Of a stretch of DNA of 64,000 nt, positions 34,002-64,000 are shown one piece after another. The DNA comes from an uncultured Gammaproteobacteria bacterium (GTDB lineage: Bacteria > Patescibacteriota > Microgenomatia > UBA12405), in the NCBI GenBank assembly GCA_964408995.1, contig CAYPBP010000002.1:32491-96490 (forward strand). Reading direction: 5' to 3'. The stretch's first letter is position 1, and each line of letters begins with the position of its first letter. The position numbers were made by a program, and so were the translations under genes. The notes beneath the pieces are model-generated. The model had not been told where the DNA came from, searched no databases, and saw only the letters and a program-made list of their open reading frames with translations.

Positions 34002-34044
34002 AAATTGATAGGAAATTTTATCACAGATCTGAGGCTAATAATTT

Positions 34045-35982
34045 TTAATAAATATCTGGGTCGTAGATGATGTCATCATCATTTCTTGATTTTGGGTGAC
34101 GATAATCACGAATAATTTCGATACTTTCTTCAAACTCAACTAAATCACCTGGGATATCTGCTAAAAAGCGACTTGGTTCGTTTAAACTGCTTTTGCCAAA
34201 AAACAAACGACGAGAGGCATAAGAAATATAAAGATAATCCTTGGCCCTGGTAATGCCCACATAACAAAGACGACGCTCTTCTTCTATTTGAGCTTCATCA
34301 ATTAAACATCTTGAATGAGGCAAAATTCCTTCTTCAAATCCAACCATAAAAACGACTTCAAACTCTAGACCTTTGGCGCTGTGAAGAGTCATTAATTTAA
34401 CTCCATCTCTGTTTTCTTTTTTCTTATTTTTTTCTTGAAGAGAATATTCTTGCTGGACTAAAGTTATGTTTTCTAAAAAGGCAGTTAAACTTGGATAAGC
34501 AGTGGCGACAGATTTTAATTCTTTAATATTTTCAATTCTCTTTTGATCTTCTTCATCTTTGGTATCGAATTTATCAAGATAACCAGAATTGACAACTAAA
34601 GATTCTAGAATTTGAAGAGAAGTTAAATTTTTTAAATCAATATTTTTTATATGTTCTAAAAGAAGAGATTTTTTACGTTTACCTAAAGCTTTTTGGATCC
34701 TTTCTTCGGAGATATGATCGGATGGATTACTGGTAAAACGAAGCATGGATAAAATATCTTTGACTTCGGCTCGCTCGTAGAAACGAATGCCACCTAATAA
34801 AACATAAGGGATATTAAGTCGTAAAAAAGCTTCTTCCAAAACACGAGACTGAGCATTCATTCGATAAAGAACAGCCATATTCCTTAATGGAATTTTCATA
34901 TTATCATTGATGAATTTTATTTTTTGAGCAATAAAATCAGATTCAGCAACTTCGGATTCGGCTTCAAAAATTTTGATTTTATCTTGGGAAAACTTTTTGG
35001 TAAATAATTTTAAAATTGGATGAGAATTATTTTTGGAAATAACTGAATTGGCAGCATCGAGAATAATCTGAGTCGAACGATAATTTTCTTCGAGATTAAT
35101 AACTTTAGTATTTTTAAAATCAGCAGTAAAACTAATAAGATTACGATAATCGGCTCCACGCCAACCATAGATGGCTTGAGAAGCATCGCCGACAACTGTA
35201 ATTTGTTTATATTTTTGAGCTAAAAGCTTGGTTAAAAGATATTGGATTTGATTGGTGTCTTGATACTCATCAACCATAATGAATTTATAGATTTCTTGAT
35301 ACTTAGCTAAAACCTGTGGATGTTCTAAAAATAATTCAACTGTTTTAAATAAAAGATCATTAAAATCGAGAGCATGAAATTCAAATAATTTTTTTTGATA
35401 AAGAGAGTAAATTTTACTGGCATAATCTTGCCAAAAACCATGGCTTTGAGCAATCATATCTTTTGGAGTTTGAAAAGAATTTTTAGCGGCTTCGATGTAA
35501 TAGAGAACACTTGATGGTTTAAATTCTTTGGTAGTTAGTCCTAATTCGTGAAGAATATTTTTAATTAAATTTTCTTGATCATTAGAATCGTAAATAACAA
35601 AAGTTGGAGGAATGCCAATATTGTTACCATCAATTCTTAAAACTCGACAACAAAAAGAATGAAAAGTTCCCGCCGACAGCTTCGCAGTCTTGGCGGGCAG
35701 GCCCGCTTCGTATCCAGATTTGGCGGGCAAACCGACTTTATTTTTTTCTTTTGAAATTAATTGTTCCATTCTCTTTTTCATTTCATCAGCGGCTTTGTTG
35801 GTGAAAGTTAAAAGTAAAACTTCTGATGGTTTAGCAATTTTTTGTTGGATGAAATAAGCCACCCGATGAGTTAGAACACGAGTTTTACCTGAGCCAGCAC
35901 CAGCCAATAGAAGCAAGGGTGAACCAATATGAGTCACCGCTTCTTTTTGAGGTGGATTTAAACCGTCTAGAATATTAACCAT
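34045..35982 (-). CDS. uvrD: UvrD/PcrA-family DNA helicase
   Basis: LNPPQKEAVTHIGSPLLLLAGAGSGKTRVLTHRVAYF, TFTNKAADEM and the downstream SF1 motifs. Contains a GC-rich in-frame insert at 35668-35736. Confidence 0.88.
   Translation of the reverse strand: MVNILDGLNPPQKEAVTHIGSPLLLLAGAGSGKTRVLTHRVAYFIQQKIAKPSEVLLLTFTNKAADEMKKRMEQLISKEKNKVGLPAKSGYEAGLPAKTAKLSAGTFHSFCCRVLRIDGNNIGIPPTFVIYDSNDQENLIKNILHELGLTTKEFKPSSVLYYIEAAKNSFQTPKDMIAQSHGFWQDYASKIYSLYQKKLFEFHALDFNDLLFKTVELFLEHPQVLAKYQEIYKFIMVDEYQDTNQIQYLLTKLLAQKYKQITVVGDASQAIYGWRGADYRNLISFTADFKNTKVINLEENYRSTQIILDAANSVISKNNSHPILKLFTKKFSQDKIKIFEAESEVAESDFIAQKIKFINDNMKIPLRNMAVLYRMNAQSRVLEEAFLRLNIPYVLLGGIRFYERAEVKDILSMLRFTSNPSDHISEERIQKALGKRKKSLLLEHIKNIDLKNLTSLQILESLVVNSGYLDKFDTKDEEDQKRIENIKELKSVATAYPSLTAFLENITLVQQEYSLQEKNKKKENRDGVKLMTLHSAKGLEFEVVFMVGFEEGILPHSRCLIDEAQIEEERRLCYVGITRAKDYLYISYASRRLFFGKSSLNEPSRFLADIPGDLVEFEESIEIIRDYRHPKSRNDDDIIYDPDIY
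35668..35736. repeat. GC-rich palindromic/tandem element (family C) in-frame within uvrD
   Basis: ttcccgccgacagcttcgcagtcttggcgggcaggcccgcttcgtatccagatttggcgggcaaaccgac, which encodes VGLPAKSGYEAGLPAKTAKLSAG between helicase motifs Ia and Ib. GC far above the local background. Confidence 0.6.
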
Positions 35983-35994
35983 GAGTAGAATTAA

Positions 35995-38094
35995 CTATAG
36001 TTGGTAAAGCTTAGTTTTACCAGACTGAAAAATAACTTGAGCGCCTATTTTTTGAAAATTAGATTCATTTAAGTTGGGATATTTTTCATATTCTTTGGTG
36101 CCAACAAAAATATATTTAATATTATATTTTTGAATTAAACTTTTTAATATATCAATATCTTTACTTTCATAGATAGATTCAACATCGTTTTGACGCTGTT
36201 TTGGTTTGTCATAGCCACCACGCCAAAGCCATTCATGAACAATCCAACCTTGGACTGTTGGTAAACCAGTATTAACAGAAACTTGATTGAAAGTAGTGTA
36301 ACTATCACCAACTGCTTCAAGCATTACTGGTTGACCAGATATATTTTGATTAATCCAATTGATAACTTTAAAATTATCTGGATAATCATTTTTTAAATAA
36401 TTTAATCCCCATAAACCTTTGTAATCTTTTAGACTATAAAAAGATTTAATAGCAAAATAAGGATAGATTAAATGAATAGCAAAAATTAAAGTGAATAATA
36501 TTCCATATAAAGTTTTAAGCCATTTTGATTTTAATAATAATCTGGTTTTATAAAAAACATAACCAGAGACTAAAGAGTACATAATAAAGGCTTGGTAAGT
36601 TAATTTAAACATGGTATTAGCTCGACGATATTCATTAATATAAATATCTTTTAGATAAATTAACTCTGGAATAAAGACTAAAATAGTAGCAGTAATAATA
36701 ACAGCTAAGATAAATAAATCAGAATTAAATAAATTTCTAATTTCTAATTTCCAATTTTTAAAAAAGAATTTTTTAATAAATAAAAATATTAATGGTAAAC
36801 AAATTAACCAAAAACCACCATATAAAATAAACAATTGATAAAAAGGAGTATGACTATCAGCGATATTAATACCCTCGCCCATGGGAATAAAATTTAGGGA
36901 AAAAGGAATAGAAAAAATAAACCAACAAAGAATAGTTAAAAATCCATTGATAAGTGTTTTTTTAAGAGCAGTTTTATAATCATTTTTTAAATTTAAAAAT
37001 AAAGTAAAAATAGCAAAGAGAAGACCGTAAATGGCAAAGTCCCAAGCATTGGTCATATAAGCAATTGAAAGATTAAAACCAGAAATAATAACTAAAGAAA
37101 AATTAATTAATGAAAATCCAACAAAACTAGAAGCAATTAAAAAAGCCATAAAAAATAAAATGATAGGAATGTCATTCATATGACCATGAAGATCGGCAAC
37201 TATAAAACTATAAGCAGGGAATTCATGGATTGTTTTATCTTGAGTCTCGGGATCATAACCAATAAAACGAGTGGCATCTGGATACCAATAAGTATTGGCT
37301 GATTCTAAAATAGCTGATTTGGTTAAAACTAATTTTTCATTATTTTTAATATTTGTTTTGGCAATTTTATAAACAGAGTGAAGGTTGCCACCAAAAGTTA
37401 GAAGTAAGACCGAAATAAGACCAGCGATAATTATTTTTTGAAAGTTAATTTTTTTTAAAGACAAAAAAACTAAATTAGAAGCGATAGAAAAAGTGGAAGA
37501 AAAAGTTAGGGCACAAACAGTGGCAATTGAAAGATTGTAAGTAATAGCTGAACTGATATTACTTAATTTAGTAAGAACGGCAAAAATGAGATGACCAAAA
37601 TAGTAGTAATTAATAACTTCACCAGAAAACCACATATCTTGAGGTGGTAAAAATTTTGACCTTAAAGCAGAATTGACAAATCCCCAATCCATGAATTTTT
37701 CAAGACCTTCTATGTCTGGAGCAAATCCCCTGACCAAAGACCAAGTAAATAAAATTAATAAGAAAACTATTTCTTGAAAAATAAAAGTTTTGTAATTGGC
37801 TTTGATTGTTTTTAGAAAGTTTGAGAAACGATTTTTGGATTTAAGAAAAATAACATTGACTATTAAAATTGAAAATATTATTAAAATTAAAAAAATATTA
37901 GTAAATGGCAAAAGCTTAAAAACTCCACCGATGAAAACTAAATAAGTTAAAACAATAATAGAAATAACTTTTGAAAAGATGTAACCCTTATCCCAAAATT
38001 TATTAAAAAGATAAAAAGTGACAGGTAAGGAAATTAGACCTAGTCCAAAAATCAAAAAGTACCAAGAAAAAATAAAACTAAAATCGGCTAACAT
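35995..38094 (-). CDS. Polytopic GT-C-fold membrane glycosyltransferase-like protein (paralog 1, 699 aa)
   Basis: More than 12 TM helices, a Gly/Trp-rich first loop with acidic residues, and a soluble C-terminal domain. Confidence 0.5.
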   Translation of the reverse strand: MLADFSFIFSWYFLIFGLGLISLPVTFYLFNKFWDKGYIFSKVISIIVLTYLVFIGGVFKLLPFTNIFLILIIFSILIVNVIFLKSKNRFSNFLKTIKANYKTFIFQEIVFLLILFTWSLVRGFAPDIEGLEKFMDWGFVNSALRSKFLPPQDMWFSGEVINYYYFGHLIFAVLTKLSNISSAITYNLSIATVCALTFSSTFSIASNLVFLSLKKINFQKIIIAGLISVLLLTFGGNLHSVYKIAKTNIKNNEKLVLTKSAILESANTYWYPDATRFIGYDPETQDKTIHEFPAYSFIVADLHGHMNDIPIILFFMAFLIASSFVGFSLINFSLVIISGFNLSIAYMTNAWDFAIYGLLFAIFTLFLNLKNDYKTALKKTLINGFLTILCWFIFSIPFSLNFIPMGEGINIADSHTPFYQLFILYGGFWLICLPLIFLFIKKFFFKNWKLEIRNLFNSDLFILAVIITATILVFIPELIYLKDIYINEYRRANTMFKLTYQAFIMYSLVSGYVFYKTRLLLKSKWLKTLYGILFTLIFAIHLIYPYFAIKSFYSLKDYKGLWGLNYLKNDYPDNFKVINWINQNISGQPVMLEAVGDSYTTFNQVSVNTGLPTVQGWIVHEWLWRGGYDKPKQRQNDVESIYESKDIDILKSLIQKYNIKYIFVGTKEYEKYPNLNESNFQKIGAQVIFQSGKTKLYQL

Positions 38095-38096
38095 AA

Positions 38097-38672
38097 TTAT
38101 TTAATAAAAAATACAAAATTAAAAACAGTTCTGATTATTTCATTTAAAAAATCTGGGAAAAATAAATTTCTAGTTATGAACCAAATAATAATTCCAAACA
38201 AGATTCCACCAAGCATGTCTATTGGGTAATGAAAACCAGCTAAGACCCTAAAAGTGAGAAGTGGTATGACTATAATGAAAAATAAAGGTAATGAAATAAC
38301 TTGAGTAGAAATGATGAATAATAAAAAGAAAATTGTTTTTGTGGTGTGACCTGAAGGAAAAGAACCTGAGTAATACCAATTATTAACTAAACCAATTGGA
38401 GCAATTGAACGACGATTGAACATAGGACGAATCCAATATTTTTGTTTTTTCAAATATCTTTCGACTGTTTCAGCAATAACTGTGGCGATAAAAAGACGGC
38501 CAAAGAAATTAATATCAAAACTAATTAATTTATAAGAAATAAAGAAAAAGAATAACCAAATAGAGTAATTCAAAACAATCAAAGAAAACTCGCCTAATAA
38601 ATTGCGTTCAAAAATAGTTAAACAATCTTTTTTTGGTTGCCAAAAAATAAGCTTTTTTAGGTTTAAAGACAC
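38097..38672 (-). CDS. PAP2-family phosphatase (undecaprenyl/polyprenyl-diphosphate phosphatase-like)
   Basis: KxxxxxxRP (YWIRPMFNRR), SFPSGHT and RVLAGFHYPIDMLGG motifs. Confidence 0.75.
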   Translation of the reverse strand: MSLNLKKLIFWQPKKDCLTIFERNLLGEFSLIVLNYSIWLFFFFISYKLISFDINFFGRLFIATVIAETVERYLKKQKYWIRPMFNRRSIAPIGLVNNWYYSGSFPSGHTTKTIFFLLFIISTQVISLPLFFIIVIPLLTFRVLAGFHYPIDMLGGILFGIIIWFITRNLFFPDFLNEIIRTVFNFVFFIK

Positions 38673-38696
38673 ATAAACAGTTTACCATAAAGGTTA

Positions 38697-40496
38697 TTAT
38701 TTAAACTTTTTGAAAATAATTACTTTGGGATGATCGTAGACTGAAAAAGCCTCTTCAGCAATATCATCACGAAGATAAACTCCAGGATAAAGACAAGTAT
38801 TATCAACTTCAAACCATTTATTTTTAGTTTGAGAATAGGGAAAGTTGGTTGGCCCAATATAAATACAATTTTTTAAAAATGGAAGGGATAGGCCAGGATA
38901 AGAGTTAAATTCAATTTCTTTTTTGAAATCTGATTTGCCGTCAAAAAGATCTTGATAATATTTGGTAGCAATTGGATATCTGTTTGGAACAAGAGGAATA
39001 GAAGACCAGAGACGATTGGAAGTAAGAAAAATATAATCAGTCTTTTTTAAGGTTGAATTTATTTTTTGCCATTTTTCAGAAGTATCCGGATCATAAAGAT
39101 GAAGATTTTGGTTTTGGTAAGGATTAAAAGATAGAGGTAAAGCATCATCCCAATATTCATTGGCGATAGTTGAGGATGATGGAATATTTTTATAAATCCA
39201 ATTTGAGGCTTGAACGCGAGAGTGAGGTCGAGTGTAGATTGATATAAAGATAATGGCATAAGAAAAATGAAAGAACAAAATAAGATAAAGTATTTTTTTT
39301 GATAAATTATTTTGAAAGATTAAAGTGACAATTATGGTTATAAATGGATATATGACCAAGAAATATCTCATAGTAGCAGTGAACTGATTGCCTTGTTGTA
39401 TGAAAAGAAAAATAGTCCAAAAAATACAAAGGAAAATTGTAAAATTTTTAGAATTTAAAAATATTTTCTTAAAAACCCTCTTGTTGTCCCGCAGATGCGG
39501 GACAACTTTCTCCCTTAAAAAAGGAGACGTTATTTTTTGATATATATATTTTATAAAAAACAAAAGAAAAACAAAAGATAAAGGTAAACCTAGTCCCCAT
39601 AAAACAATATTTTTTAGCGGATATAAAATTGGAGTTTTACTGAGCCATTGAATTTCTGGGGGATAAAAAACATCTTTATTAATTAAAATTGATTTTAAAT
39701 ATACAAGACTTTTTATAAAGTCTGGATTAATCTTAATTAAAGAAATGAAACTATATGGCTGAAAAATACGAAAAACAATAAAAGAAATAAAAAGAGATAT
39801 AAATATTTTTAAAAAGATAAGAGTCTTCTTTTTAAAAATTTGATAAATAAAAAACAATAAAATAACAGGAGAAAAAAGAAATGCAGAAATTTTACAAGTT
39901 AAACTTAGACCAAAGGTAATAGAAGCAAAAATTAAAAAAATATTCTTATTAGTTTTTAGCCAATAAGAAAAACAAACAAATGATAGTAATATAAAAAAAG
40001 TAAGAAAAGTATCAACGGCAAAAAAATGTGAAAGTTGAATTGGCAAAACAGTAAAAGCATAAAGTAAACTTGGTAAAAATAAGAAAAACTTTTTGTTTTT
40101 GGAAATGAATAATTTTGCTAGAAAATATAAACTGAAAATATTGAGGGAATCAAAAACAGATGATAAAGCGCGACCTAATAAATGAATTTTGTCATAGCCT
40201 TCTATATTAAAAATATTACCCAATGTTTTAACTAAAAATAATGGGAAGGTGCCATAAACAAAAAAATTAAATTGTTGATAATTAAACGGATTTAAGGGTG
40301 AAGATTTGGTATCAAAATATTGAACAATGGAACTGGGAAATTCAATCGTAGAAATTATCATGGTTAAAAATCTTTCGTCTGGATGAAGATGCTGATTTTG
40401 ATCCCAATTTAGTCCAAAGAGACGAATTGATAGAGCTAAACAAAAGATAATAAAAACTATAAAAAGATGATGATTAAATATTTTTTTGACAAACAT
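38697..40496 (-). CDS. Polytopic GT-C-fold membrane glycosyltransferase-like protein (paralog 2, 599 aa)
   Basis: N-terminal loop GLNWDQNQHLHPDERFL (a DE motif after TM1), many TM helices, and a C-terminal domain homologous to that of paralog 3. Contains the in-frame GC-rich hairpin at 39483-39506. Confidence 0.55.
   Translation of the reverse strand: MFVKKIFNHHLFIVFIIFCLALSIRLFGLNWDQNQHLHPDERFLTMIISTIEFPSSIVQYFDTKSSPLNPFNYQQFNFFVYGTFPLFLVKTLGNIFNIEGYDKIHLLGRALSSVFDSLNIFSLYFLAKLFISKNKKFFLFLPSLLYAFTVLPIQLSHFFAVDTFLTFFILLSFVCFSYWLKTNKNIFLIFASITFGLSLTCKISAFLFSPVILLFFIYQIFKKKTLIFLKIFISLFISFIVFRIFQPYSFISLIKINPDFIKSLVYLKSILINKDVFYPPEIQWLSKTPILYPLKNIVLWGLGLPLSFVFLLFFIKYIYQKITSPFLREKVVPHLRDNKRVFKKIFLNSKNFTIFLCIFWTIFLFIQQGNQFTATMRYFLVIYPFITIIVTLIFQNNLSKKILYLILFFHFSYAIIFISIYTRPHSRVQASNWIYKNIPSSSTIANEYWDDALPLSFNPYQNQNLHLYDPDTSEKWQKINSTLKKTDYIFLTSNRLWSSIPLVPNRYPIATKYYQDLFDGKSDFKKEIEFNSYPGLSLPFLKNCIYIGPTNFPYSQTKNKWFEVDNTCLYPGVYLRDDIAEEAFSVYDHPKVIIFKKFK
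39483..39529. repeat. GC-rich palindrome (family B, copy 1) in-frame within the GT-C gene
   Basis: gttgtcccgcagatgcgggacaac, a 10-bp stem, then tttctcccttaaaaaaggagacg. Encodes ...REKVVPHLRDNK... Related to gtcccgcagcggcgggac at 51477-51494. Confidence 0.6.
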
Positions 40497-41103
40497 AAAA
40501 TACGTGAGGGTAAAAAAGACTAAAATATTTACCTTGTTTAATTATTTTAAAATTATTTTTTATTAATAGACTTTCTAATTGTAAATCAGATAGAAAATAA
40601 AGTGAAGAAAATTTGGTCATAATTAAATCGTGAATATAATTCCAATAGTATTTTAAAAGTGGTTTTGTGTTTATATCTTTGATAATTAAAAGTCCGTTTT
40701 TATTAAGCTTAAAAAAAGAATCTTTTAAAAAGATATTTTTTTGAGATGAATTAATGTGATGAAGTAAATCAATGGCAACAATAGCATCAAATTTTGATTG
40801 ATTATTGTCAATTAGATTTGAAGTTTCAAAAGAAATATTAGTTATGTTAGAAGAAACTTTTTTGGCCAAGGCAACCCTTACGGGGTTTAACTCTAGACCA
40901 ATAACTTTTCTTTTTTTGTTTTTGGCAAAAAATATTGAAGTAAATCCATATCCACAACCAACATCTAGAATATAACCTTTTTGAGGTAAAAGTTTATCTA
41001 TTTTTAAAACAGGCAAAATAATAAATCTAAGAAAAACATAAATTCTTGGCCAAAGAAATGGATATAAATTAATTATTGGAAAATATTTTTTGATAGTCAT
41101 CAT
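40474..41103 (-). CDS. Class I SAM-dependent methyltransferase
   Basis: Motif I ILDVGCGYGFTS. Confidence 0.75.
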   Translation of the reverse strand: MMTIKKYFPIINLYPFLWPRIYVFLRFIILPVLKIDKLLPQKGYILDVGCGYGFTSIFFAKNKKRKVIGLELNPVRVALAKKVSSNITNISFETSNLIDNNQSKFDAIVAIDLLHHINSSQKNIFLKDSFFKLNKNGLLIIKDINTKPLLKYYWNYIHDLIMTKFSSLYFLSDLQLESLLIKNNFKIIKQGKYFSLFYPHVFYVCQKNI

Positions 41104-42649
41104 AAGTGAGATTATTAATTTTTTTGTAAATTCTTATGGTCGGATTATCAAAAACAGACCAAGTTTCTTCAGCGTTTTCAGAGTTTAAAATAAAATCTTT
41201 TTGGTTATTAAATTTTTTAATTTCTTGAAATCCTAATTTACCTGAAAATAAATTTTGATAATATTTAAAAGATAAAGGATAGTTTTTGTTATTTTGATTT
41301 TTAAAAACTCGGCGAGAAGGAATAATGATGTAATCACTTTTAAATAAATCCATTAATAAATCATTTTGGTTTTGGTTATTGTAAAAATCAAAATGATTAA
41401 CATTAATTTTTGAATTGGAAATGGGAATATTAACTACATTGCCAGATTCTGAAAAAACATAAGAATTTAAAGGAATATTGGAATTAATCCAACTTGAAGC
41501 AACTACCCTGTTGTCTGGCTTAAAATATTTTGAAACAAAATAAATACCAGGACTAATCATTAGCATAACTAAAACAAAAGTTAGATAATTATTTTTAATT
41601 TTTTTTATAAAATAGAGACAAAAAAATGAACCAATAAAAAATAATGGTGACATAAAACGAGACCATTTAATAAAGAGTTGGCCACTGTAAAGAAAATAAA
41701 TTACTGAAGGAAATAAAATTATTAATAATTTATTTTTATTAGTTGATATTAATTTTTTAGTATTTAGTATGAAAATAATAAATCCAATAAAAGAAAACAA
41801 ATAAATGAATATGCCATTGGCATATGGAAAAATATTTTTAAACTGGAAAATATAAGGAATAGTATTTTCAAACTGACGAGTGTAAAAAACTTTTGACTGA
41901 CCAGTGGCAATTGAAGTTTCATAAATCATAGTTGATTTAAAGTTAGAAAAATCAATAAGATTAAATGGTGAAAAGAGAATTGATAATAATAAAAATAGAA
42001 ATGTAAAAATTATTGAACTTAAAATGAAATTAAGAAATTTTTTATTTTTTAATAAAACTAAAAATAAAGATAAATAGATTGGTAAGACAAAAAAGACAGC
42101 TGTTATTTTTGAAGCAAGACCGAGTGCACTAATTAAAATAGAAAAAAATAAATATATTTTTTTTTGATTTTTAAGATAATTTAGAGATAAATAAATGTTG
42201 ACTGAAAATACAAAAATCAAAATCGATTCGGTGGTACCAAAGTGAGCAGACTGAATAAGCCCTGGAGTAAAAATAAGGAGTAAGGCAAATAAATAAGCAA
42301 TTTTTTTTAAAGAAAAAATATTTTTAGCAATTAAATAAAAAAATAAAATTGATAGAGATGAAAAAAGAGCTGACCAAAAACGCATGGTCAAAACTATACT
42401 AGAAAAATCATGTTTAAAAGTGGTAAAAAAAGTTAAAAAAAGTGGAAACTGACCATAGGCAAAGAAATTGGGATGGAGATTTTCAAAACTCATCTGAGCC
42501 ACTGAGGTGGCCATATTATTTTCATCAGGATTAAAGAAAAAATCATTGCCCCAATTTAGAAAACAAAAACGAGTAAATATCGTAAGTATTAATAGAAAAA
42601 TTGGAATTAATAGTTTTTTATCTTTATTAAATTGCATAGACAATACCAA
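41069..42649 (-). CDS. Polytopic GT-C-fold membrane glycosyltransferase-like protein (paralog 3, 526 aa)
   Basis: GNDFFFNPDENN loop after TM1, many TM helices, and a C-terminal ...KYYQNLFSGKLGF...EETWSVFDNPTIRIYKK similar to paralog 2. Confidence 0.55.
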   Translation of the reverse strand: MVLSMQFNKDKKLLIPIFLLILTIFTRFCFLNWGNDFFFNPDENNMATSVAQMSFENLHPNFFAYGQFPLFLTFFTTFKHDFSSIVLTMRFWSALFSSLSILFFYLIAKNIFSLKKIAYLFALLLIFTPGLIQSAHFGTTESILIFVFSVNIYLSLNYLKNQKKIYLFFSILISALGLASKITAVFFVLPIYLSLFLVLLKNKKFLNFILSSIIFTFLFLLLSILFSPFNLIDFSNFKSTMIYETSIATGQSKVFYTRQFENTIPYIFQFKNIFPYANGIFIYLFSFIGFIIFILNTKKLISTNKNKLLIILFPSVIYFLYSGQLFIKWSRFMSPLFFIGSFFCLYFIKKIKNNYLTFVLVMLMISPGIYFVSKYFKPDNRVVASSWINSNIPLNSYVFSESGNVVNIPISNSKINVNHFDFYNNQNQNDLLMDLFKSDYIIIPSRRVFKNQNNKNYPLSFKYYQNLFSGKLGFQEIKKFNNQKDFILNSENAEETWSVFDNPTIRIYKKINNLTYDDYQKIFSNN

Positions 42650-43565
42650 TTATTATCAGCCCCCATGTTAGGACTGAAAGTAAAAGAGGTATATCAGTAG
42701 CAATTGCCCTTTCTGGTCTCTCACCTTCTTGCATCTCAAAAATAATTTGACCATAACGCATGATGCCAAAAATAACTGGTAGAAGAGTGATCATATACCA
42801 TTTTCTATTAAGAGCATTTGGGAAATTTTCTAAAATAAAATTGTGTAATACACCAGAACCAGCAAAACTAATTGATTCTTCGAAAAAAGTAAACATGGCA
42901 TAAGTAATTAAAGTACAAACAGCAAACATAGTGGTGTAAAAATTTAATAAATTTTTACCATAACCAATTAAAGAAGATCTCGTCTTAATGCCAGTATTTA
43001 TTAACTCACTACGTCTTTTTCCGCTAGCAATAAATAAAGATAGAAAAATGACAGTTAACATAATCCAAACTGGAAGATGATAACCAGTAACAATTTCTCC
43101 AGCATAAGCTCTTATTATAAAAAATAAGGCTATGCCAACAATGTCTATAATGGCTTTCTTTTTGAATAAAAATGAATAAGAATATTGAAGTAAAATAAAA
43201 ATTAAAGAAATAATAAAGAAAGCATAATTAGTAAAAACAGCAATTCCTAAACCAGAAAAAAGAAGACAAAAAGAAATAAAAATAGCTAAATGTTCTGGAA
43301 TCTCACCGCTGGCAATAGGTCTATATTTTTTAACAGGATGAAGTCGATCTTTATCTATATCGATAAGGTCGTTAATGATATACGAAGAAGAAGACAATAA
43401 ACAAAATGTTACAAAAGCGAGAAAGTTTTTGATAAATAACTCAATATTAAATAATTGACCATTTAAAATTAAGGCAGCAAAAATACTTAAATTCTTTATC
43501 CATTGAATTGGACGAAGTTCTTTGAAAATAGAAACTATAATCTTATGCTTTGGCATTGATAACAT
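42627..43565 (-). CDS. UbiA-family prenyltransferase (decaprenyl-phosphate phosphoribosyltransferase-like)
   Basis: NDLIDIDKDRLHPVKKYRPIASG (NDxxDxxxD) and a second Asp-rich motif. 8-9 TM helices. Confidence 0.75.
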   Translation of the reverse strand: MLSMPKHKIIVSIFKELRPIQWIKNLSIFAALILNGQLFNIELFIKNFLAFVTFCLLSSSSYIINDLIDIDKDRLHPVKKYRPIASGEIPEHLAIFISFCLLFSGLGIAVFTNYAFFIISLIFILLQYSYSFLFKKKAIIDIVGIALFFIIRAYAGEIVTGYHLPVWIMLTVIFLSLFIASGKRRSELINTGIKTRSSLIGYGKNLLNFYTTMFAVCTLITYAMFTFFEESISFAGSGVLHNFILENFPNALNRKWYMITLLPVIFGIMRYGQIIFEMQEGERPERAIATDIPLLLSVLTWGLIIIGIVYAI

Positions 43566-43602
43566 ATCATACCATTGAAAAGTCTTCTGCTTAAATTTAA
43601 TT

Positions 43603-44916
43603 TTATTTTTTCTTTAGAGTTAAGAATGAAAAAGAAACAAAAAGAAGAGATATTATGGATAATAAAATTGTTGGAACTAAGCTTCCAGTGACTGGAACTC
43701 CAGAACTAGTGCTTGGTAGAGTCGTAGTATTACGAGCAACTGCTGTAGGAATTGCGGTTGGAATTAGAGTTGGAACTACAGTTGGTTTAACTGTAGGAAT
43801 TGCGGTTGGAATTAGAGTTGGAGTTGGAGTAGTAGCTGATGGTGAAGCCGAATAAGATAATGGACTATCAGTGGCTAAAACAGTAAATTTTCTAGAAATA
43901 ATTTTTTCAATTCCATCTTGTATAACAGTAACTGTAATTGTGTGTTCACCTGGAGTTAAGTTTTTGGGTGGTGACCAATTCCAAGAACCATCGTCTTTTG
44001 TTTTAACTTCGCCAGTGTAAACAACTGGTGATTCAACTTTTATTTTAATTTTGGAATTGGCAGGACCAGTACCAAAAAAATCGGGCTTTTTGGTTGATAA
44101 AGATTCATTATCTTTTGGATTTAAAATATCTAGCTCTTTAGCTTTTGGCATTGGATCGATAACAGGTAAGGAACCAACATTAGATTCAGAATCAAAATTA
44201 ACAGAAGAAGCTGAAAATTCATTTTGACCTAAAATAATGTCTGGACTAGGATTATTTCTAGAGGTATTGGAACTGATTTGAGTTATATTTTTTTCTTTAT
44301 CTATAACAACAATTTCTTGAGGTGTATTTTCTTTTGGAGTGAATCTATCAGTTGTCTCTTCATTAAAACTATTAGCTAAAGAAATATTCCAATTACCTGA
44401 AGATGTTACTAGAGCAGATAAGGGTGAAGCACCTGGAATATTAATAAACACTATTACCTTACTAGCTGCTTTTAATTCTGGAGTAAAAACTCTTCCCCAA
44501 GCTAAATTAGAAGATGGGGCTAAAGAATTTGGTTTCTGGGCTGTTTTGAATTTGTACAAAGACTCATTGTATTTTTTACCATCACTAATGATTGTATATT
44601 TATATTCAGTTTCGTCTTCTAGGTTAGAGATATCAAAATAATGTATTTTTGTTTTTTCATTGTCATCATTAGTAACTCCATTTCTAATGTTTTGATTATT
44701 AATTGATAAATTAGACAAACATTCAGCTTCTGTTGTAAAAGAAATAGAAACTGAATTATTAGTTATATTTGTTATTTGAGTGTTTTTAGGGATACAGTCA
44801 CTACTAGCTTTGGAAACAACATTGGTGCCGTTATTGTTTAAAACAACACCGACATAAATTCCTCCTATTAAAATAATAAGACCTAAGATAGTAGGAATTC
44901 TTTTTTCTTTAAGCAT
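43603..44916 (-). CDS. Cell-surface protein with FN3/Ig-like domains, a P/T-rich stalk and a sortase-like C-terminal sorting signal
   Basis: N-terminal TM/signal, beta-rich repeats, (IPT/PTV) repeats, and a C-terminal ...LPSTSSGVPVTG + hydrophobic helix + KKK. Confidence 0.5.
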   Translation of the reverse strand: MLKEKRIPTILGLIILIGGIYVGVVLNNNGTNVVSKASSDCIPKNTQITNITNNSVSISFTTEAECLSNLSINNQNIRNGVTNDDNEKTKIHYFDISNLEDETEYKYTIISDGKKYNESLYKFKTAQKPNSLAPSSNLAWGRVFTPELKAASKVIVFINIPGASPLSALVTSSGNWNISLANSFNEETTDRFTPKENTPQEIVVIDKEKNITQISSNTSRNNPSPDIILGQNEFSASSVNFDSESNVGSLPVIDPMPKAKELDILNPKDNESLSTKKPDFFGTGPANSKIKIKVESPVVYTGEVKTKDDGSWNWSPPKNLTPGEHTITVTVIQDGIEKIISRKFTVLATDSPLSYSASPSATTPTPTLIPTAIPTVKPTVVPTLIPTAIPTAVARNTTTLPSTSSGVPVTGSLVPTILLSIISLLFVSFSFLTLKKK

Positions 44917-45369
44917 TTAAGGGTTTAAACCATATGATGTTTCATCATAATTTAATTCATCTGATGTTTCATCATAATTTAATTCATCTGATGTTTCATC
45001 ATAATTTAATTCATCTGATGTTTCATCATAATTTAATTCAATTAGTTCAACTGGGGTTGGTTCTGGAGTTGGTGTGGGTGTAGGAGTTGGTGTGGGTGTA
45101 GGAGTTGGATTGAAAACTGAAAAACTAAAATTTTCTTCTATATTTTTATTTCTTGATTCAATTTCGGACATTACAGATAAATCTAGATTCGGATTTATTT
45201 CTTTTAATAAAGAATTGTTTTCAACTTCTTTTTGAGGTTTTAGTAAGTTAAAATAACTTTTTTGGATTAAAAAAATAAAAACCGTCATCAAAGTAAGAAA
45301 AGAAATCAAAACAAAGTATAAAGAGAGTTTATTCTTTTTCATTATTGTCTGATAAAAAATATAAATCAT
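44917..45369 (-). CDS. Membrane-anchored repeat protein ((PT)n linker plus 4 repeats of ELNYDETSD)
   Basis: N-terminal TM, PTPTPTPTPTPTPEP, then four tandem nonapeptide repeats. Confidence 0.45.
   Translation of the reverse strand: MIYIFYQTIMKKNKLSLYFVLISFLTLMTVFIFLIQKSYFNLLKPQKEVENNSLLKEINPNLDLSVMSEIESRNKNIEENFSFSVFNPTPTPTPTPTPTPTPEPTPVELIELNYDETSDELNYDETSDELNYDETSDELNYDETSYGLNP
44932..45039. repeat. Tandem 27-bp coding repeat, 4 copies
   Basis: (c)atctgatgtttcatcataatttaattc, 4 copies, encoding ELNYDETSD on the minus strand. An adjacent 18-bp-period (PT) repeat lies at 45056-45112. Confidence 0.85.
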
Positions 45370-45964
45370 TAGAGAAATTTACTTTTATGTTCTTTGAATT
45401 AATTTGATTATCTTCTTTGGATGGCTGACTTAGTCTAATATTAGTAGTATTAATAACACGACGATTATTGAGTAATTTTTTGATCATGGCTATGACAGAA
45501 GAATATTCACCCTCACTATTAACATTAATCTGATAAGTTTTAACAGAATTATTTGTGGGGTCTTTGCCTTCATTCAAATTTAAGCTAATTTGCTTTATGT
45601 TTAAAGATGATTCTTTGGATATAGTACCTAGATTAGAGGCACTGTCGTAATATCTAGCTAAAGAAGGAATGGCATCTTCAATTAAGTAAGTTTTTTCTTG
45701 AATTTGAGAGTAAGATTCTTGGGCTTTAATAATATTTTCAACTTTTAAATCGACTTTTTTTATAAAAGATTCTTTTGACTTAATGTCTCCAATTAGAGAA
45801 GAAATTGTAGTGGTTGTTGGCATGATGGCAAAAAACAAGAATATAGCAACTAAACTAAAAGTACCACCAACTTCTAAATAATTCAGAAATTTTTCTTTTT
45901 CTGCTTGTTTCCTAATGTAATTATACATCGGCCGAAGCTGAAACCAAGTTTTATTATTTGTCAT
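45329..45964 (-). CDS. PilO-like type IV pilus assembly protein (tentative)
   Basis: Short cytoplasmic N-terminus, one TM helix, then a coiled-coil periplasmic domain. Sits next to the PilN-like gene. Confidence 0.35.
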   Translation of the reverse strand: MTNNKTWFQLRPMYNYIRKQAEKEKFLNYLEVGGTFSLVAIFLFFAIMPTTTTISSLIGDIKSKESFIKKVDLKVENIIKAQESYSQIQEKTYLIEDAIPSLARYYDSASNLGTISKESSLNIKQISLNLNEGKDPTNNSVKTYQINVNSEGEYSSVIAMIKKLLNNRRVINTTNIRLSQPSKEDNQINSKNIKVNFSNDLYFLSDNNEKE

Positions 45965-46539
45965 GTTTTACTGGCGGTTTGGGCCGATTTAAAAAGTAAA
46001 GTTAGAGAGATAGAATATTGATTTTCTTTCTCTTTTTTTTCAATTTTATTAATATTAACTTGATCAATACTAGGATTAACCATTAGGTTAGTGATAAAAG
46101 AAACTATACTTTCTTCTCTATAAGCGATAAGGGAAGTATTTATAGTGACTGTTTTTGATTTTTCATCTTTTGAAATTGATAACATCTCATAAAACAAATC
46201 TTCTGGAGTACTAGTCACTAAAGAATCTATTTGCTTATGGTATTCTGGTTGATTGTTGTAAGAATTTTTAATGTAGCTTAATTTTTGTTGTAATTTAACA
46301 AAATCTCCTTCAAAAGGAATAACGCTTTCTAAAATTGCTTGTTTTTGTCTAGATATTTCTGAAAGATCTGAATTTTTACGATCAAGCCAAAAACGAGAAA
46401 CAAAAGCTGAAATAACAATAAACTCAGTGATAATAATAGTTGCCCTACCTGCGGTAGTAATCCAATTGAAAAAGCGAACCCCAAACGAATTTGGATTCTC
46501 TGATTCAGGTAAAAGAGAAATTTCTTTCTTTATAGCCAT
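45961..46539 (-). CDS. PilN-like type IV pilus assembly protein (tentative)
   Basis: N-terminal ...EISLLPE (compare the PilN INLLP motif) followed by a TM helix and a periplasmic domain. Confidence 0.35.
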   Translation of the reverse strand: MAIKKEISLLPESENPNSFGVRFFNWITTAGRATIIITEFIVISAFVSRFWLDRKNSDLSEISRQKQAILESVIPFEGDFVKLQQKLSYIKNSYNNQPEYHKQIDSLVTSTPEDLFYEMLSISKDEKSKTVTINTSLIAYREESIVSFITNLMVNPSIDQVNINKIEKKEKENQYSISLTLLFKSAQTASKT

Positions 46540-46556
46540 ACATTCAGTATATACGA

Positions 46557-48170
46557 CTATTTATGGAAAATGAAATCTTTAAATCTTAAATAATATTTTT
46601 GATAGTCTTTTACTTCTTCTAACTTGAGAAAGTGAACAGAAAAGATATAAGTAGCTAAAGCAATTATAGAAGAAATTGCGGTAAGAGTTAAAACTGGAAT
46701 AACACGAGCTGTATCAAGGATAAAAAGATCTAAAAATTTTATAGACAACCAACCAACTATTCCCATTAGAACAGAAGAAATAACTATTTTGTAAAACTTT
46801 ATTAACATTAAAGGCCAATTGAAACCTTTAACAATCCTAACAAACATAATTAATAAACCTAAAAGCTGAACTACATTACCAATTGAAGCACTAATAGCTA
46901 GGCCGACAACTCCAAGATTAGTGAAATTAACAAAATAGAAACTGGTAGAAATGGTTATTACTAGAGAAACAGCTGAAACAAAAAATGGAACTTTAGTGTT
47001 GTGGAAAGCATAAAAAGCTCTAATTAGAATTTGAATTACAGCCTGACAAATTATGCCTGGAGTCAAAAAGGCTAAAATCTTAGCAGTTAAAAGAGTGGCC
47101 GACCAGGGAAATTGACGAGATCCATAAAGAATTCTAATGATAGAAACTCTTTCAATAAGAATTAAAACAGTAATAGGAATAGCAATAAATAAACTTTGAA
47201 TTATGATTTTACTAACAGTATTTCTAAACTTTTCTAATTCATTTTTAGCAATATTTTTGGAAAGTATTGGTAGAGATGCTTGACCAACTGTAGTGCCAAA
47301 GATACGGCTTGGCCAATACATAAATTGAAGAGCTAAATTTAAAAGGGAAATTGAGCCAGATGCTAGAGAGCTGGCAAAAAATAAAGTGACAGTATTTTCA
47401 ATTTCACCTAAACCAAGGGATAGAATTCTTGGTACCATAAGACGAAAAACTTCCCTAACTCCATTTAATTTTGTCCTGATAATAGGATAGTAAACAAAAC
47501 CTTGATGACGAACTACTGGAATTTGAATGGCTAAATGAAAGAAAGCACCAACAACAACACCAATGGCAACTCCATAAATACCAAACATAGGAGCTAGGGC
47601 AAAGATACTAATTATTATAAAAAAGTTATAAATAATAGGTGAGAGAGCAGGAACTATAAAGACTTGGTTAACCTGAAGAATGGCAGTAATGAAATTACTG
47701 AGTAAGAAAAAAATTTGGGCAATAAGTAGAATTCGACTAAGACTAGCCATTAAAACTAATTGATCCGGGAAAAAACCACCAGCAATTATTTTTGAGATGG
47801 GATTAATGAAAATAAAAGCAATTACAGCAATTACAAAAAAAGCAATTAAAAGAAGATTGATAACTGTAGAGGCAATTTCATCAGCAACTTTTTTGTTTTT
47901 ATGAAGATAACTTGAAAAAACAGGAATAAATGAAGCTGATAAAACTCCAGTAACTAATAATTTAAAAATTAGGTCTGGAAGACGAAAAGCAGCATTATAA
48001 ACATCAAGATCAGCTACACAACAAGAAAAGAAATGAGCGTATAAAAAACGATTTCTTAAAAGACCAAGAATTGAAGAAATACTAAAAGTAATAGCTAAAA
48101 CTAATGAAGCCGACAAAATAGTACTCTGTTTTCTTTGAGTTATTAATCTGATTCTTTCTTTTAATGTCAT
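46557..48170 (-). CDS. murJ: Lipid II flippase MurJ/MviN
   Basis: 537 aa, 14 TM, MOP-superfamily N-terminal pattern ...ILGLLRNRFLYAHF. Confidence 0.8.
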   Translation of the reverse strand: MTLKERIRLITQRKQSTILSASLVLAITFSISSILGLLRNRFLYAHFFSCCVADLDVYNAAFRLPDLIFKLLVTGVLSASFIPVFSSYLHKNKKVADEIASTVINLLLIAFFVIAVIAFIFINPISKIIAGGFFPDQLVLMASLSRILLIAQIFFLLSNFITAILQVNQVFIVPALSPIIYNFFIIISIFALAPMFGIYGVAIGVVVGAFFHLAIQIPVVRHQGFVYYPIIRTKLNGVREVFRLMVPRILSLGLGEIENTVTLFFASSLASGSISLLNLALQFMYWPSRIFGTTVGQASLPILSKNIAKNELEKFRNTVSKIIIQSLFIAIPITVLILIERVSIIRILYGSRQFPWSATLLTAKILAFLTPGIICQAVIQILIRAFYAFHNTKVPFFVSAVSLVITISTSFYFVNFTNLGVVGLAISASIGNVVQLLGLLIMFVRIVKGFNWPLMLIKFYKIVISSVLMGIVGWLSIKFLDLFILDTARVIPVLTLTAISSIIALATYIFSVHFLKLEEVKDYQKYYLRFKDFIFHK

Positions 48171-48208
48171 GCAATGAATTATAACTAATTATTTAACAGA
48201 TTATATAG

Positions 48209-48237
48209 TTGTAAATATGTGACTAATAAGATAAAAT
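48209..48237 (+). promoter_or_regulatory. Candidate sigma70 promoter of rpsT
   Basis: TTGTAA (48209-48214), a 17-nt spacer, then TAAAAT (48232-48237). The ATG at 48245 is only 7 nt downstream, suggesting a leaderless transcript. Confidence 0.35.
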
Positions 48238-48244
48238 ATTCCTC

Positions 48245-48559: not shown

Positions 48560-48645
48560 AAGCCACTAGTTTGGATAATTCCAAATAATGTGGCAAAATA
48601 AGGGTATCGAAAGATACTCTTTTTTGTTTCTTAGGAACTAAAAAT

Positions 48646-51236: not shown

Positions 51237-51237
51237 A

Positions 51238-51429: not shown

Positions 51430-51472
51430 AAGTTATTATAACAAATCCACCCCTACCCCTCCTTTGATCCTC

Positions 51473-51509
51473 CTTCGTCCCGCAGCGGCGGGACTACGGA
51501 CGGACGAAG
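51473..51509. repeat. GC-rich palindromic element (family B, copy 2) downstream of folD
   Basis: cttcgtcccgcagcggcgggactacggacggacgaag. Alternative nested stems, preceded by a C-rich tract. Confidence 0.55.
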
Positions 51510-63519: not shown

Positions 63520-64000
63520 CTTAGATGAAAATACTATTTATTTTGATAACAACTTTAGCATTAAGATTAATTGGAATTAATCAATCATTATGGTTAGATG
63601 AAGCAATTTCGGCTAATGTGGCTAAGATGCCAATGTTAGAAATTGTTAAAAATTTTTCTATAAATGATTTTCATCCCCCACTTTATTATCTATTTTTAAA
63701 TTTTTGGACAAAAATTTTTGGAAGTAATGTGGTTCTTTTAAGATTAAGTTCGGTTTTATTTTCTTTAATTACAATTTATTTTGTTTATTTAATTGGTGTT
63801 CAAATTAAAAACAAGAAAATAGGAATATTAGCAGCTTTATTTTTGGCAATTAATCCTTTGTTCGTTTATTTTTCACAAGAACTAAGAATGTATGCCATGG
63901 CGACAATGTGGTTGACCATTGGATTTTATTTTTTTGTAAAGATCAAAGAGAAAAAAAATAAAATATCTGATTTGATTATTTTTAATTTAATGATGGCTTT
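63520..64000 (+). CDS. GT-C family 39 (ArnT/PMT-like) glycosyltransferase, 5' part continuing beyond the window
   Basis: LALRLIGINQSLWLDEAISA...HPPLYY...SQELRMYA, the typical GT39/PMT_2 N-terminal signature. Confidence 0.7.

Follow-up and report, generated by a model that had tools for sequence, protein, structure and literature searches.

Introduction

What sugar does a Candidatus Shapirobacteria bacterium place on its surface, and from what lipid donor is it drawn? The question is raised by a cluster of about 7.5 kb in a 64-kb stretch of DNA (contig CAYPBP010000002.1, positions 32,491 to 96,490; hereafter the window), where six minus-strand open reading frames (ORFs), g1 to g6, occupy positions 35995-43565 and a surface-protein gene, g7, lies next upstream. 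The nearest database proteins, exact or near-exact, come from metagenome-assembled genomes of Candidatus Shapirobacteria/Woesebacteria, which belong to the Microgenomates within the candidate phyla radiation (CPR, or Patescibacteria). For the most part, CPR bacteria are obligate epibionts with genomes near 1 Mb in size, and to our knowledge their surface chemistry is almost unknown.

Lipid-linked pentofuranose pathways have been described in other bacteria. In Citrobacter youngae, a UbiA-fold polyprenyl-phosphate 5-phosphoribosyltransferase (PPPRS) fused to a HAD phosphatase makes undecaprenyl-phospho-ribofuranose from phosphoribosyl pyrophosphate (PRPP), the flippase is predicted to be a MATE protein, and on the periplasmic side a glycosyltransferase of the GT-C fold, the founding member of family GT136, decorates the O antigen with alpha-ribofuranose (Ribf) (Kelly et al., PNAS 2024, PMC11127046). 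One epimerase of the short-chain dehydrogenase/reductase (SDR) type switches the Ribf donor to xylofuranose (Xylf), arabinofuranose (Araf) systems carry DprE1/E2 homologs, and candidate systems with several GT-Cs were noted in Gram-positive bacteria (PMC11127046). In Mycobacterium tuberculosis, aftB, ubiA (Rv3806c) and the PAP2 gene Rv3807c are encoded side by side (PMC11127046).

We consider it fairly probable that the cluster in the window is a PPPRS-dependent extracytoplasmic pentofuranosylation system. An earlier reading of the same DNA (the original prediction) had seen in these genes a polyprenyl-phosphate-sugar donor pathway feeding periplasmic glycosyltransferases in a non-actinobacterial genome, with an arabinan- or mannan-like product; the analysis described here supports the core of that proposal and points to a different sugar.

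Results

The predicted donor synthase g6

The 312-residue g6 product is a UbiA-family protein (Pfam UbiA, 90 bits) and carries the motif NDLIDIDKD, which conforms to NDxxDxxxD. It scores 212 bits with the NCBIfam model for decaprenyl-phosphate phosphoribosyltransferase (NF008978), for which the curated cutoff is 207, whereas the models for quinone, haem and chlorophyll prenyltransferases reach 43 bits at most, more than 150 bits lower. Among all PDB chains the top match is Rv3806c (8j8j, E 1.4e-40), with 4tq3 (E 7e-9) second among UbiA enzymes, a gap that places Rv3806c closer to g6 by 30 orders of magnitude than any other solved UbiA enzyme. The likeness to decaprenylphosphoryl-5-phosphoribose (DPPR) synthase, not to quinone-type enzymes, that had been read from the motif is thus confirmed.

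The cryo-EM structure of Rv3806c shows contacts of N73, D77 and Q135 with Mg2+ and ribose, of K28, Y70 and Y157 with the 5'-phosphate, and of R22, K87, R90, Y138, K143 and K208 with the pyrophosphate (PMC10994848). In a HMMER alignment, 10 of these 12 residues (R22, K28, Y70, N73, D77, K87, R90, Q135, Y138 and K143) are identical in g6. Y157 is replaced by F, as also occurs in some mycobacteria (PMC10994848), and K208 by a serine (S197) that stands beside a conserved R196. Among 57 orthologs from related loci the substrate-residue positions are 95-100% conserved, with the exception of the K208 site, and the conserved set includes PRPP-specific residues that UbiA enzymes do not share with Rv3806c. 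Because g6 passes the NF008978 cutoff, has Rv3806c as by far its nearest solved relative and keeps the substrate residues, we assign it as a PPPRS, its activity being predicted from family membership and active-site conservation.

The g6 product is the only lipid-sugar synthase among the window genes, which include no GT2 enzyme of the polyprenyl-phosphate-hexose or -mannose synthase type, UDP-galactopyranose mutase (GLF), GtrA, DprE1-type FAD oxidase or sugar epimerase. The mannan-like product that had been proposed would call for a polyprenyl-phosphate-hexose synthase, and none is present in the window. The arabinan would need DprE1 and DprE2, and neither was found in the window, within 10 kb to either side of about 80 related loci, or among the gene families of the variable slot in those loci (see below). 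An SDR gene at 62798-63469 was considered as DprE2 and rejected, having generic SDR matches only.

The phosphatase g2

The identification of g2 (191 residues) as a PAP2 lipid phosphatase holds, with a Pfam PAP2 score of 33 bits (cutoff 27.2). The protein has K75KQKYWIRP (K75x6RP), PSGH106 and (F)R142VLAGFHYPID (R142x5Hx3D), which match the PAP2 motifs KX6RP, PSGH and SRX5HX3D, and none of the three varies among 74 orthologs. By hydropathy and the positive-inside rule the active site would face the cytoplasm, although the transmembrane (TM) calls are too crude to be trusted. BLAST and hidden Markov model (HMM) comparisons detected no similarity between g2 and the phosphatase partners (HAD, PHP, 'divergent PAP2') of other PPPRS loci. 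A PAP2 gene does directly follow the PPPRS gene on a Marivivens plasmid, as one accompanies ubiA in M. tuberculosis. From linkage and this precedent we infer that g2 has the role of Rv3807c, that of a 5'-phosphatase converting polyprenyl-phospho-ribose-5-phosphate to polyprenyl-phospho-ribofuranose.

Elsewhere in the window, a pair of HAD-type hydrolases (206 and 208 residues), tandem paralogs of each other, is encoded on the plus strand at 26257-27521, at a distance of 9 kb from the cluster. Their family matches are of the nucleotidase type only and below cutoff. Enzymes of the HAD type do act as phosphoribose phosphatases in other PPPRS systems.

Three GT-C enzymes of two families

The three large membrane proteins had been taken for GT-C paralogs. 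Three GT-C enzymes they are, of which g3 and g5 are paralogs and g1 has only the fold in common with them. The g3 and g5 products are 27% identical from end to end, the C-terminal domain included (E 5e-29), and their scores are 27.0 and 43.8 bits with PMT_2 (PF13231, cutoff 26.1; g3 is marginal) and 23.9 and 38.3 bits with PMT (PF02366, cutoff 22.7). An acidic pair follows the first TM segment, in HPDERF of g3 and NPDENN of g5, and the P-D-E shows no variation among some 60 orthologs of each protein (P39-D40-E41 in 60 orthologs of g3). The C-terminal domain shared by the two proteins, noticed previously, is marked by KYYQDLF...SVYDHP in g3 and KYYQNLF...WSVFDNP in g5. Orthologs of both are named 'glycosyltransferase family 39 protein' by NCBI.

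Since a sequence search of PDB chains with g5 and g1 gave no match even at E=1, the two were compared by fold. The g5 matches are GT-C enzymes only, the best being ALG12, Pmt and ArnT, which use polyprenyl-phosphate-monosaccharides, together with oligosaccharyltransferases; the structure prediction suggested earlier for the C-terminal domain shows, for g5, an alpha/beta domain like the C-terminal domain of AglB. The g1 product scores 470.7 bits with TIGR03662 (Chlor_Arch_YYY, cutoff 300.25) and 316 bits with DUF2298 (PF10060). Its motif N162-Y-Y-Y-F-G-H168 is invariant in 25 orthologs, and YYYxG is conserved in 33 distant family members. The AlphaFold2 model of g1 has a pLDDT of 74 and a pTM of 0.78, with the conserved loops poorly modelled. 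All of its high-probability Foldseek matches are GT-C enzymes (DPY19, 1.7e-5; AftA, 4.4e-5; STT3; PglB), with the best TM-scores to the arabinosyltransferase AftA (0.44/0.50), and transporters match at a probability below 0.1. No sequence similarity to g3 or g5 is detectable, and on this model g1 is a third GT-C-fold enzyme that is not their paralog. Thus the large proteins are placed by HMM in PMT_2 and DUF2298, and by fold, for g5 and g1, among GT-C enzymes, not in transporter families as would have undercut the proposal.

To judge from their family assignments, membership of the cluster GT-Cs (PMT_2-type g3 and g5, DUF2298-type g1) in CAZy GT136 is unlikely, and none of the cluster proteins falls in the Emb or Aft families of arabinofuranosyltransferases (GT53, GT85 and GT89).

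Some DUF2298 orthologs, of 770-781 residues, carry a C-terminal LysM peptidoglycan-binding domain (locus L003, 14918-17245; P0152, P0154, P0156, P0157 and P0160). This domain hints at an enzyme that acts at or near peptidoglycan.

Conservation and turnover in Shapirobacteria

The synteny comparison that the original prediction proposed was made with five contigs found through g5 homologs and 80 loci kept from 276 relatives found by DUF2298 alignment. The 80 are all at the level of Shapirobacteria (49-78% identity); their ORFs were called and matched to the window proteins, and counts over 57 refer to the non-redundant loci that hold both UbiA and DUF2298. The linkage UbiA...GT-C...PAP2-DUF2298 is kept across these 57 loci: every one has at least one GT-C of the g3/g5 type between UbiA and DUF2298 (46 have both), and PAP2 directly precedes DUF2298 in 54 (75/78 overall). 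The gene for the Pro/Thr-rich surface protein with a Big_13 domain (g7) is one of the two directly upstream of UbiA in 46/57.

Between the second GT-C, g3 or GT-C(b), and PAP2 lies a variable slot that holds 0-4 extra genes in the related loci. Its genes are of glycan type only, the families being GT4 (44 loci, always on the opposite strand), GalE-like NAD-dependent SDR epimerases/dehydratases (15), additional PMT_2 GT-Cs (13), FkbM methyltransferases (13), DUF362 (5), class I methyltransferases and others. The methyltransferase g4, counted as a member of the set in the original prediction, is indeed a class I S-adenosylmethionine (SAM)-dependent enzyme (Methyltransf_23/31/25, 47-54 bits), with no specific NCBIfam family and no close PDB relative. 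A g4-like gene is found in only 10 of the 57 loci, in 4 of them at the position it has in the window, so g4 is a strain-variable accessory and not part of the core, and the window represents the minimal core plus a methyltransferase. The turnover of glycan-modifying genes in the slot resembles that of O-antigen or wall-polysaccharide serotype loci, and the concentration and turnover of glycan genes strictly inside the interval from UbiA to DUF2298 is more telling than the conserved order.

Many Shapirobacteria-like contigs (L007, L008, L013-L016 and others) are labelled 'uncultured Gammaproteobacteria bacterium', and L057 is labelled 'Candidatus Methanoperedens sp.'; such labels evidently stem from mislabelling or from contamination of the bins.

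Gene layout and candidate acceptors

As first described, the six minus-strand genes are consecutive and have short or overlapping junctions (Table 1): from g1 to g6 these measure 2, 24, -23, -35 and -23 nt, UbiA, GT-C(a), the methyltransferase and GT-C(b) overlapping by 23-35 nt. The g5 start is ATG 42637 and not TTG 42649, the database protein having 522 residues. Equally tight same-strand packing continues on either side of the six genes, reaching from MurJ (48170) at one end at least as far as GuaA (32130) at the other, in the order MurJ, PilN-like, PilO-like, small Pro/Thr-rich protein, g7 (437 residues), the cluster, a UvrD-type helicase and GuaA, so that junctions by themselves set no operon limits. 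A scan of 33900-48700 for promoters and terminators returned counts not above those of shuffled sequence and so sets no bounds to the transcription unit. Housekeeping genes are spread across the window, which has a G+C content of about 30% and no tRNA or Rfam matches.

Table 1. Genes of the cluster and associated features, with window coordinates.
Feature	Coordinates	Strand	Basis
g6: PPPRS (DPPR-synthase type, UbiA fold)	42627..43565	-	NF008978, 8j8j match
g5: GT-C(a), PMT_2-type, C-terminal extracytoplasmic alpha/beta domain	41069..42637	-	PMT_2, fold match
g4: class I SAM methyltransferase, hydrophobic N-terminus	40474..41103	-	Methyltransf_23/31/25
g3: GT-C(b), g5 paralog with the same C-terminal domain	38697..40496	-	PMT_2, g5 alignment
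g2: PAP2 lipid phosphatase	38097..38672	-	Pfam PAP2, motifs
g1: DUF2298 / Chlor_Arch_YYY, third GT-C-fold protein	35995..38094	-	TIGR03662, PF10060, Foldseek
g7: Big_13 surface protein, candidate acceptor	43603..44916	-	Big_13, sorting-like signal
Small bitopic Pro/Thr-rich protein	44917..45369	-	Sequence; no Pfam family
PilO-like (45329-45964) and PilN-like (45961-46539) bitopic proteins	45329..46539	-	Pfam
MurJ, MOP-superfamily flippase	46557..48170	-	TIGR01695, Pfam MurJ
Fourth GT-C (PMT_2 type), N-terminal 158 residues only, cut by the window end	63525..64000	+	PMT_2

The g7 protein has an N-terminal TM segment or signal anchor, an immunoglobulin-like Big_13 domain (30 bits), a Pro/Thr-rich stalk and an LPXTG-like C-terminal signal (SSGVPVTG, a TM segment and KKK). 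All 48 of the 48 homologs have a P/T/S-rich stalk (40-60%) followed by 'PSTSSG[VIM]PxTG', a TM segment and basic residues, with V, I or M in place of L. The small protein encoded upstream of g7 has a (PT)7 tract and then four tandem acidic ELNYDETSD copies, and is a possible second acceptor. The PilN-like protein scores 26.4 bits (cutoff 22.8) and the PilO-like protein 19.8 bits, below cutoff. MurJ, the PilN/PilO-like genes and the small Pro/Thr-rich gene keep their order and position in relatives. TfpW-like pilin glycosylation was considered and set aside, as a search of the window for a prepilin (G|FTLxE-type) gene found none. In more than 20 relatives, a second Pro/Thr-rich surface protein of 275-514 residues, missing from the window, is encoded between the Big_13 gene and UbiA (for example L005 4753-6297, L024 1671-2708 and L075 2486-3361); it ends in 'PSPTRIxLP(Q/S/E)(A/S)G(V/F)(D/E)FP' and a TM segment, a signal of the LPxAG/LPxSG type.

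MurJ, the only flippase-type gene near the cluster, scores 265 bits with TIGR01695 (cutoff 235.6) and 246 bits with Pfam MurJ. Having passed the equivalog cutoff, it was dismissed as a dedicated flippase of the cluster and is most likely, by family, the housekeeping lipid II flippase.

The fourth GT39-type gene that had been reported near the window end is present, with a PMT_2 score of 56 bits on the 158-residue fragment and WLDEA after the first TM segment; its start is at 63525, not 63520. It lies outside the cluster and is divergent from the SDR gene at 62798-63469 (223 residues, minus strand), and the two may form a second glycosylation unit (62798-64000). Of two further plus-strand ORFs, one of 188 residues at 3025-3591 has a weak match to IS200-like Y1 transposases in its C-terminal part only (E 4e-5) and is possibly a remnant, and one of 198 residues with a TTG start at 51203-51799 has no Pfam match, overlaps the FolD gene (51526-52371, minus strand) and is probably spurious.

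PPPRS and DUF2298 loci in other lineages

A tblastn search of plasmids with g6 found PPPRS genes in many phyla, in neighbourhoods that follow the same logic with interchangeable parts. In Lactococcus cremoris pF27D, a hypothetical 462-residue protein, PPPRS, a HAD-IB phosphatase and GtrA are encoded inside a wall-polysaccharide cluster; two haloarchaea have a GT39 or Dol-P-Man mannosyltransferase, an NAD epimerase, PPPRS, a PHP phosphatase and LPG_synthase_TM; Chondrinema has DUF2723 and three GT39 genes around PPPRS, an FAD-binding oxidoreductase and an SDR; and Marivivens has EamA, GT4, PPPRS and PAP2. Only the PPPRS genes of these loci are orthologous to window genes. By BLAST and HMM, g1, g2, g3 and g5 showed no significant similarity to the PPPRS partners in these plasmid loci of five other phyla, apart from a weak PMT_2-core match to a haloarchaeal GT39.

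The DUF2298 family is large, comprising 6,434 clusters at 50% identity (E <1e-3), and a profile built from distant members retrieved Lachnospiraceae proteins (Anaerocolumna, Herbinix and Mobilitalea). Nine contigs outside CPR were read for DUF2298 context. In 4/9, a GT2 gene of about 240 codons lies directly upstream of DUF2298; the best NCBIfam matches of these GT2 products, all below cutoff, are ArnC, PgfS, PpgS, AglJ and Dol-P-hexose transferase. Three of these four contexts also have GLF, so that GLF and GT2 precede DUF2298 in Lachnospiraceae such as Anaerocolumna aminovalerica (L086 8018-12265, L088 8054-12400 and L092 5809-10508), which suggests a lipid-linked galactofuranose donor for DUF2298 in cultured organisms. 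In another 3/9, the FAD oxidoreductase NF005560 adjoins DUF2298, with GtrA, LPG_synthase_TM and a 315-residue GT2 nearby, and 2/9 have no glycan context. These associations support the view that DUF2298 is generally the GT-C arm of lipid-monophosphate sugar systems, and furanose-related partners that recur beside it (GLF there, a Ribf lipid here) are suggestive. None of the nine has UbiA, and the pairing of DUF2298 with PPPRS appears specific to the Shapirobacteria lineage. We found no literature that links DUF2298 to a function, the mentions found being non-functional, and none that links CPR/Patescibacteria to DPPR synthase or polyprenyl-phosphoribose.

Two other families met in these loci are absent from the window. 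The NF005560/PRK07233 oxidoreductase (NAD_binding_8/Amino_oxidase, about 425-443 residues; L089 12135-13430, L090 8716-10008, L094 1247-2578 and L085 678-1952) also lies upstream of UbiA in L085, the most divergent Shapirobacteria-like locus, and its L085 and L090 members are 32% identical (E 4e-69). It shares NAD_binding_8 with UDP-galactopyranose mutase and may modify the sugar of the DUF2298 donor. LPG_synthase_TM, which resembles the MprF flippase, occurs beside PPPRS and a PHP phosphatase in haloarchaea (L096 8567-9532 and L099 8611-9609) and beside GT2/DUF2298 (L089 13427-14407), and is a candidate flippase family for polyprenyl-phosphate-sugars.

Discussion

How might the cluster products act together? 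In the pathway that we propose, g6 would move ribose-5-phosphate from PRPP onto polyprenyl phosphate at the cytoplasmic face, a step for which the enzyme family is established and the activity predicted. The g2 product would then strip the 5'-phosphate to give polyprenyl-phospho-beta-D-ribofuranose, as its motifs, its linkage and the precedent of Rv3806c/Rv3807c suggest. Before export, the membrane-associated g4 of this strain may act on the lipid-linked sugar or on an acceptor precursor, which is speculative since g4 is an optional accessory. A flippase would flip the lipid-linked donor, and g5, g3 and probably g1 would transfer the pentofuranose to a surface acceptor outside; their GT-C fold is apparent from the comparisons above, and the donor and acceptor are predicted. 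With no epimerase and no DprE1/DprE2 in the window, the logic of Kelly et al. makes ribofuranose the most likely sugar, and in the 15 relatives whose slot holds a GalE-like SDR an epimer is probably installed instead.

A glycopolymer or lipoglycan associated with peptidoglycan has close to an even chance of being the acceptor, given the LysM domain on DUF2298 orthologs, the frequent GT4 in the slot and the flanking MurJ and FemAB genes. Somewhat less likely is the stalk of g7, the Pro/Thr-rich part of the sortase-type surface protein encoded next to the cluster. Ser/Thr-rich segments of this kind are substrates of PMT-type GT-Cs and of TfpW. Some other acceptor is less likely again.

Several points weigh against a pentofuranosylation system. 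DprE1/DprE2 or a polyprenyl-phosphate-hexose synthase may lie outside the 64 kb. UbiA adjoins DUF2298 in 0/9 loci from other phyla, where the partners are GT2, GLF, GtrA or the FAD oxidoreductase, so the donor of g1 may be another one, whose synthesis is encoded elsewhere in the genome. Both g3 and g5 score only marginally with PMT_2. For g2, the named NCBIfam models that fit best are those of undecaprenyl-diphosphate phosphatases, at about 30 bits and far below cutoffs of more than 229, and the active site of PAP2 enzymes is usually on the outward face. Neither the cluster nor the window yielded a dedicated flippase (GtrA, MATE, EamA or LPG_synthase_TM). Moreover, a block of about 20 kb is equally syntenic in Shapirobacteria and includes the unrelated genes MurJ, UvrD, GuaA and FemAB, as well as GatA/B, which makes conserved order weak evidence of functional coupling.

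An alternative explanation is that two modules lie side by side, with UbiA and GT-C(a)/(b) handling a pentofuranose and PAP2-DUF2298 forming a separate unit. In that case PAP2 would recycle the carrier lipid (undecaprenyl diphosphate or another lipid phosphate), DUF2298 would use a hexose or galactofuranose donor from a GT2 synthase encoded elsewhere, and the 5'-phosphate would be removed by another phosphatase, for which the two HAD hydrolases 9 kb away could be cited, or not at all. The lineage-specific pairing keeps this explanation alive, since elsewhere DUF2298 goes with GT2, GLF and GtrA and in 0/9 loci with UbiA; the variable slot parts GT-C(b) from PAP2, the nearest named matches of g2 are of the undecaprenyl-diphosphate type, and LysM on some DUF2298 orthologs points to a role on the peptidoglycan side. 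However, GT-Cs that use polyprenyl monophosphates release polyprenyl phosphate, so that a pyrophosphatase is not needed, and among the window genes there is neither a GT2 nor a GLF donor synthase. A phosphatase consistently stands beside PPPRS in other phyla, a PAP2 enzyme in Marivivens and M. tuberculosis (PMC11127046), and PAP2-DUF2298 stays with UbiA in 54/57 loci despite the heavy turnover between them. We regard the two-module arrangement as unlikely, though it deserves weight.

Less likely still is a pathway of the arabinan type, in which DprE1/DprE2-like enzymes encoded elsewhere would epimerise the ribosyl lipid to polyprenyl-phospho-arabinofuranose, and the GT-Cs would be arabinofuranosyltransferases that build an arabinan-like polymer or arabinosylate protein as TfpW does. 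PPPRS, PAP2 and a GT-C together reproduce the mycobacterial aftB-ubiA-Rv3807c arrangement (PMC11127046), g1 has its best TM-scores to AftA, a Bacteroidota plasmid combines PPPRS with DprE1/DprE2-like genes and several GT39 genes, and in the window an SDR gene adjoins the fourth GT-C. Against these observations stands the failure to find DprE1/DprE2 in the window or near the related loci.

Finally, we think it very improbable that the genes have nothing to do with glycosylation, g6 being a conventional UbiA prenyltransferase that serves quinone, haem O or lipid synthesis, and the large proteins acting in transport or as structural components within a housekeeping array of one direction. Such a view could draw on the reading of CPR UbiA-family genes as ubiquinone genes (PMC11484240), the one long same-strand array and the uninformative promoter and terminator scans. 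Against it, NCBIfam and PDB both place g6 with phosphoribosyltransferases, far above the quinone and haem models, g6 conserves the PRPP-specific residues that set Rv3806c apart from UbiA enzymes, and GT-C enzymes are what g5 and g1 match by fold at high probability.

If the pentofuranosylation reading is correct, Shapirobacteria display a pentofuranose (ribofuranose-type) glycan or glycoprotein, made by a cluster that sits at the same place throughout the sample, and this could plausibly help to determine how they attach to hosts and how susceptible they are to phages. It would offer DUF2298 a testable function as the GT-C arm of lipid-monophosphate sugar systems, and it warns that 'ubiA' in a CPR genome should not be taken for a gene of quinone biosynthesis. 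A broader and more speculative view, which as a whole we think unlikely to hold, is that DUF2298 is a GT-C family for furanoses from polyprenyl-phosphate donors, Ribf in Shapirobacteria (PPPRS and PAP2) and galactofuranose in Lachnospiraceae (GLF and GT2), and that with the two PMT-like GT-Cs it builds a class-wide, strain-variable pentofuranose wall glycopolymer or O-pentofuranosylated sortase-anchored adhesins. Were that so, an 'arabinogalactan-like' lipid-linked furanose pathway would be a core feature of the CPR envelope, and the serotype-like hypervariable slot may govern host and phage recognition.

Relation to known systems

How does the proposed system compare with those already described? 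With the three-component Gtr type (GtrA flippase, GtrB of family GT2, and a GT-C) it shares a lipid-monophosphate sugar donor and an extracytoplasmic GT-C. The GLF-GT2-DUF2298 loci of Lachnospiraceae are also of the Gtr type, with DUF2298 in the place of the GT-C. The Gtr synthase is a nucleotide-sugar-dependent GT2 enzyme and needs no phosphatase, whereas the synthase here is PRPP-dependent and of the UbiA fold. Like the GT39/PMT_2 enzymes (protein O-mannosyltransferases and ArnT), g3 and g5 have the D-E pair after the first TM segment, and the top structural similarity is to Pmt4, Pmt2 and ArnT. They differ in their marginal family scores, in the distinct conserved C-terminal domain (KYYQxLF...SVFDxP) and in having no polyprenyl-phosphate-mannose or Ara4N synthase nearby in the window.

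In the O-arabinosylation of group IV pilins in Pseudomonas aeruginosa, a PPPRS-derived pentofuranose is moved by the GT-C enzyme TfpW onto Ser/Thr of a surface protein (PMC11127046). The window likewise has a Pro/Thr-rich surface protein, with PilN/PilO-like genes, directly upstream of the cluster; unlike the TfpW system, it has no pilin gene and no DprE1/E2, and the candidate acceptor is a sortase-type wall protein. The mycobacterial decaprenyl-phospho-arabinose pathway is similar in placing PPPRS and PAP2 beside GT-C genes and in serving several GT-Cs with one lipid donor, and differs in its DprE1/DprE2 pair, not found in the window, and in its Emb/Aft-family transferases, to which the cluster GT-Cs do not belong.

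ORF12-15 of C. youngae O1/O2 resemble the cluster in having PPPRS acting from PRPP, a 5'-phosphatase, for which g2 is the candidate here, and an extracytoplasmic GT-C, with an optional SDR that is found here in the slot of relatives. In contrast to C. youngae, the phosphatase of the window is a separate PAP2 protein and not a HAD domain fused to PPPRS, the cluster has no MATE or GtrA flippase, and there are three GT-Cs of two families (PMT_2-like and DUF2298), with an alpha/beta, AglB-like C-terminal domain in g5, where C. youngae has one GT136 enzyme with a beta-rich carbohydrate-binding module. The host is a Gram-positive-type CPR bacterium without O antigen. The pathway type is thus the one already known from mycobacteria, Pseudomonas and Citrobacter (PMC11127046), and the same mechanism would operate here in a CPR lineage. 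What the Shapirobacteria loci add is that lineage, a class-wide conservation combined with a serotype-like slot, and an uncharacterised family of GT-Cs, DUF2298, that may have been recruited to the pathway.

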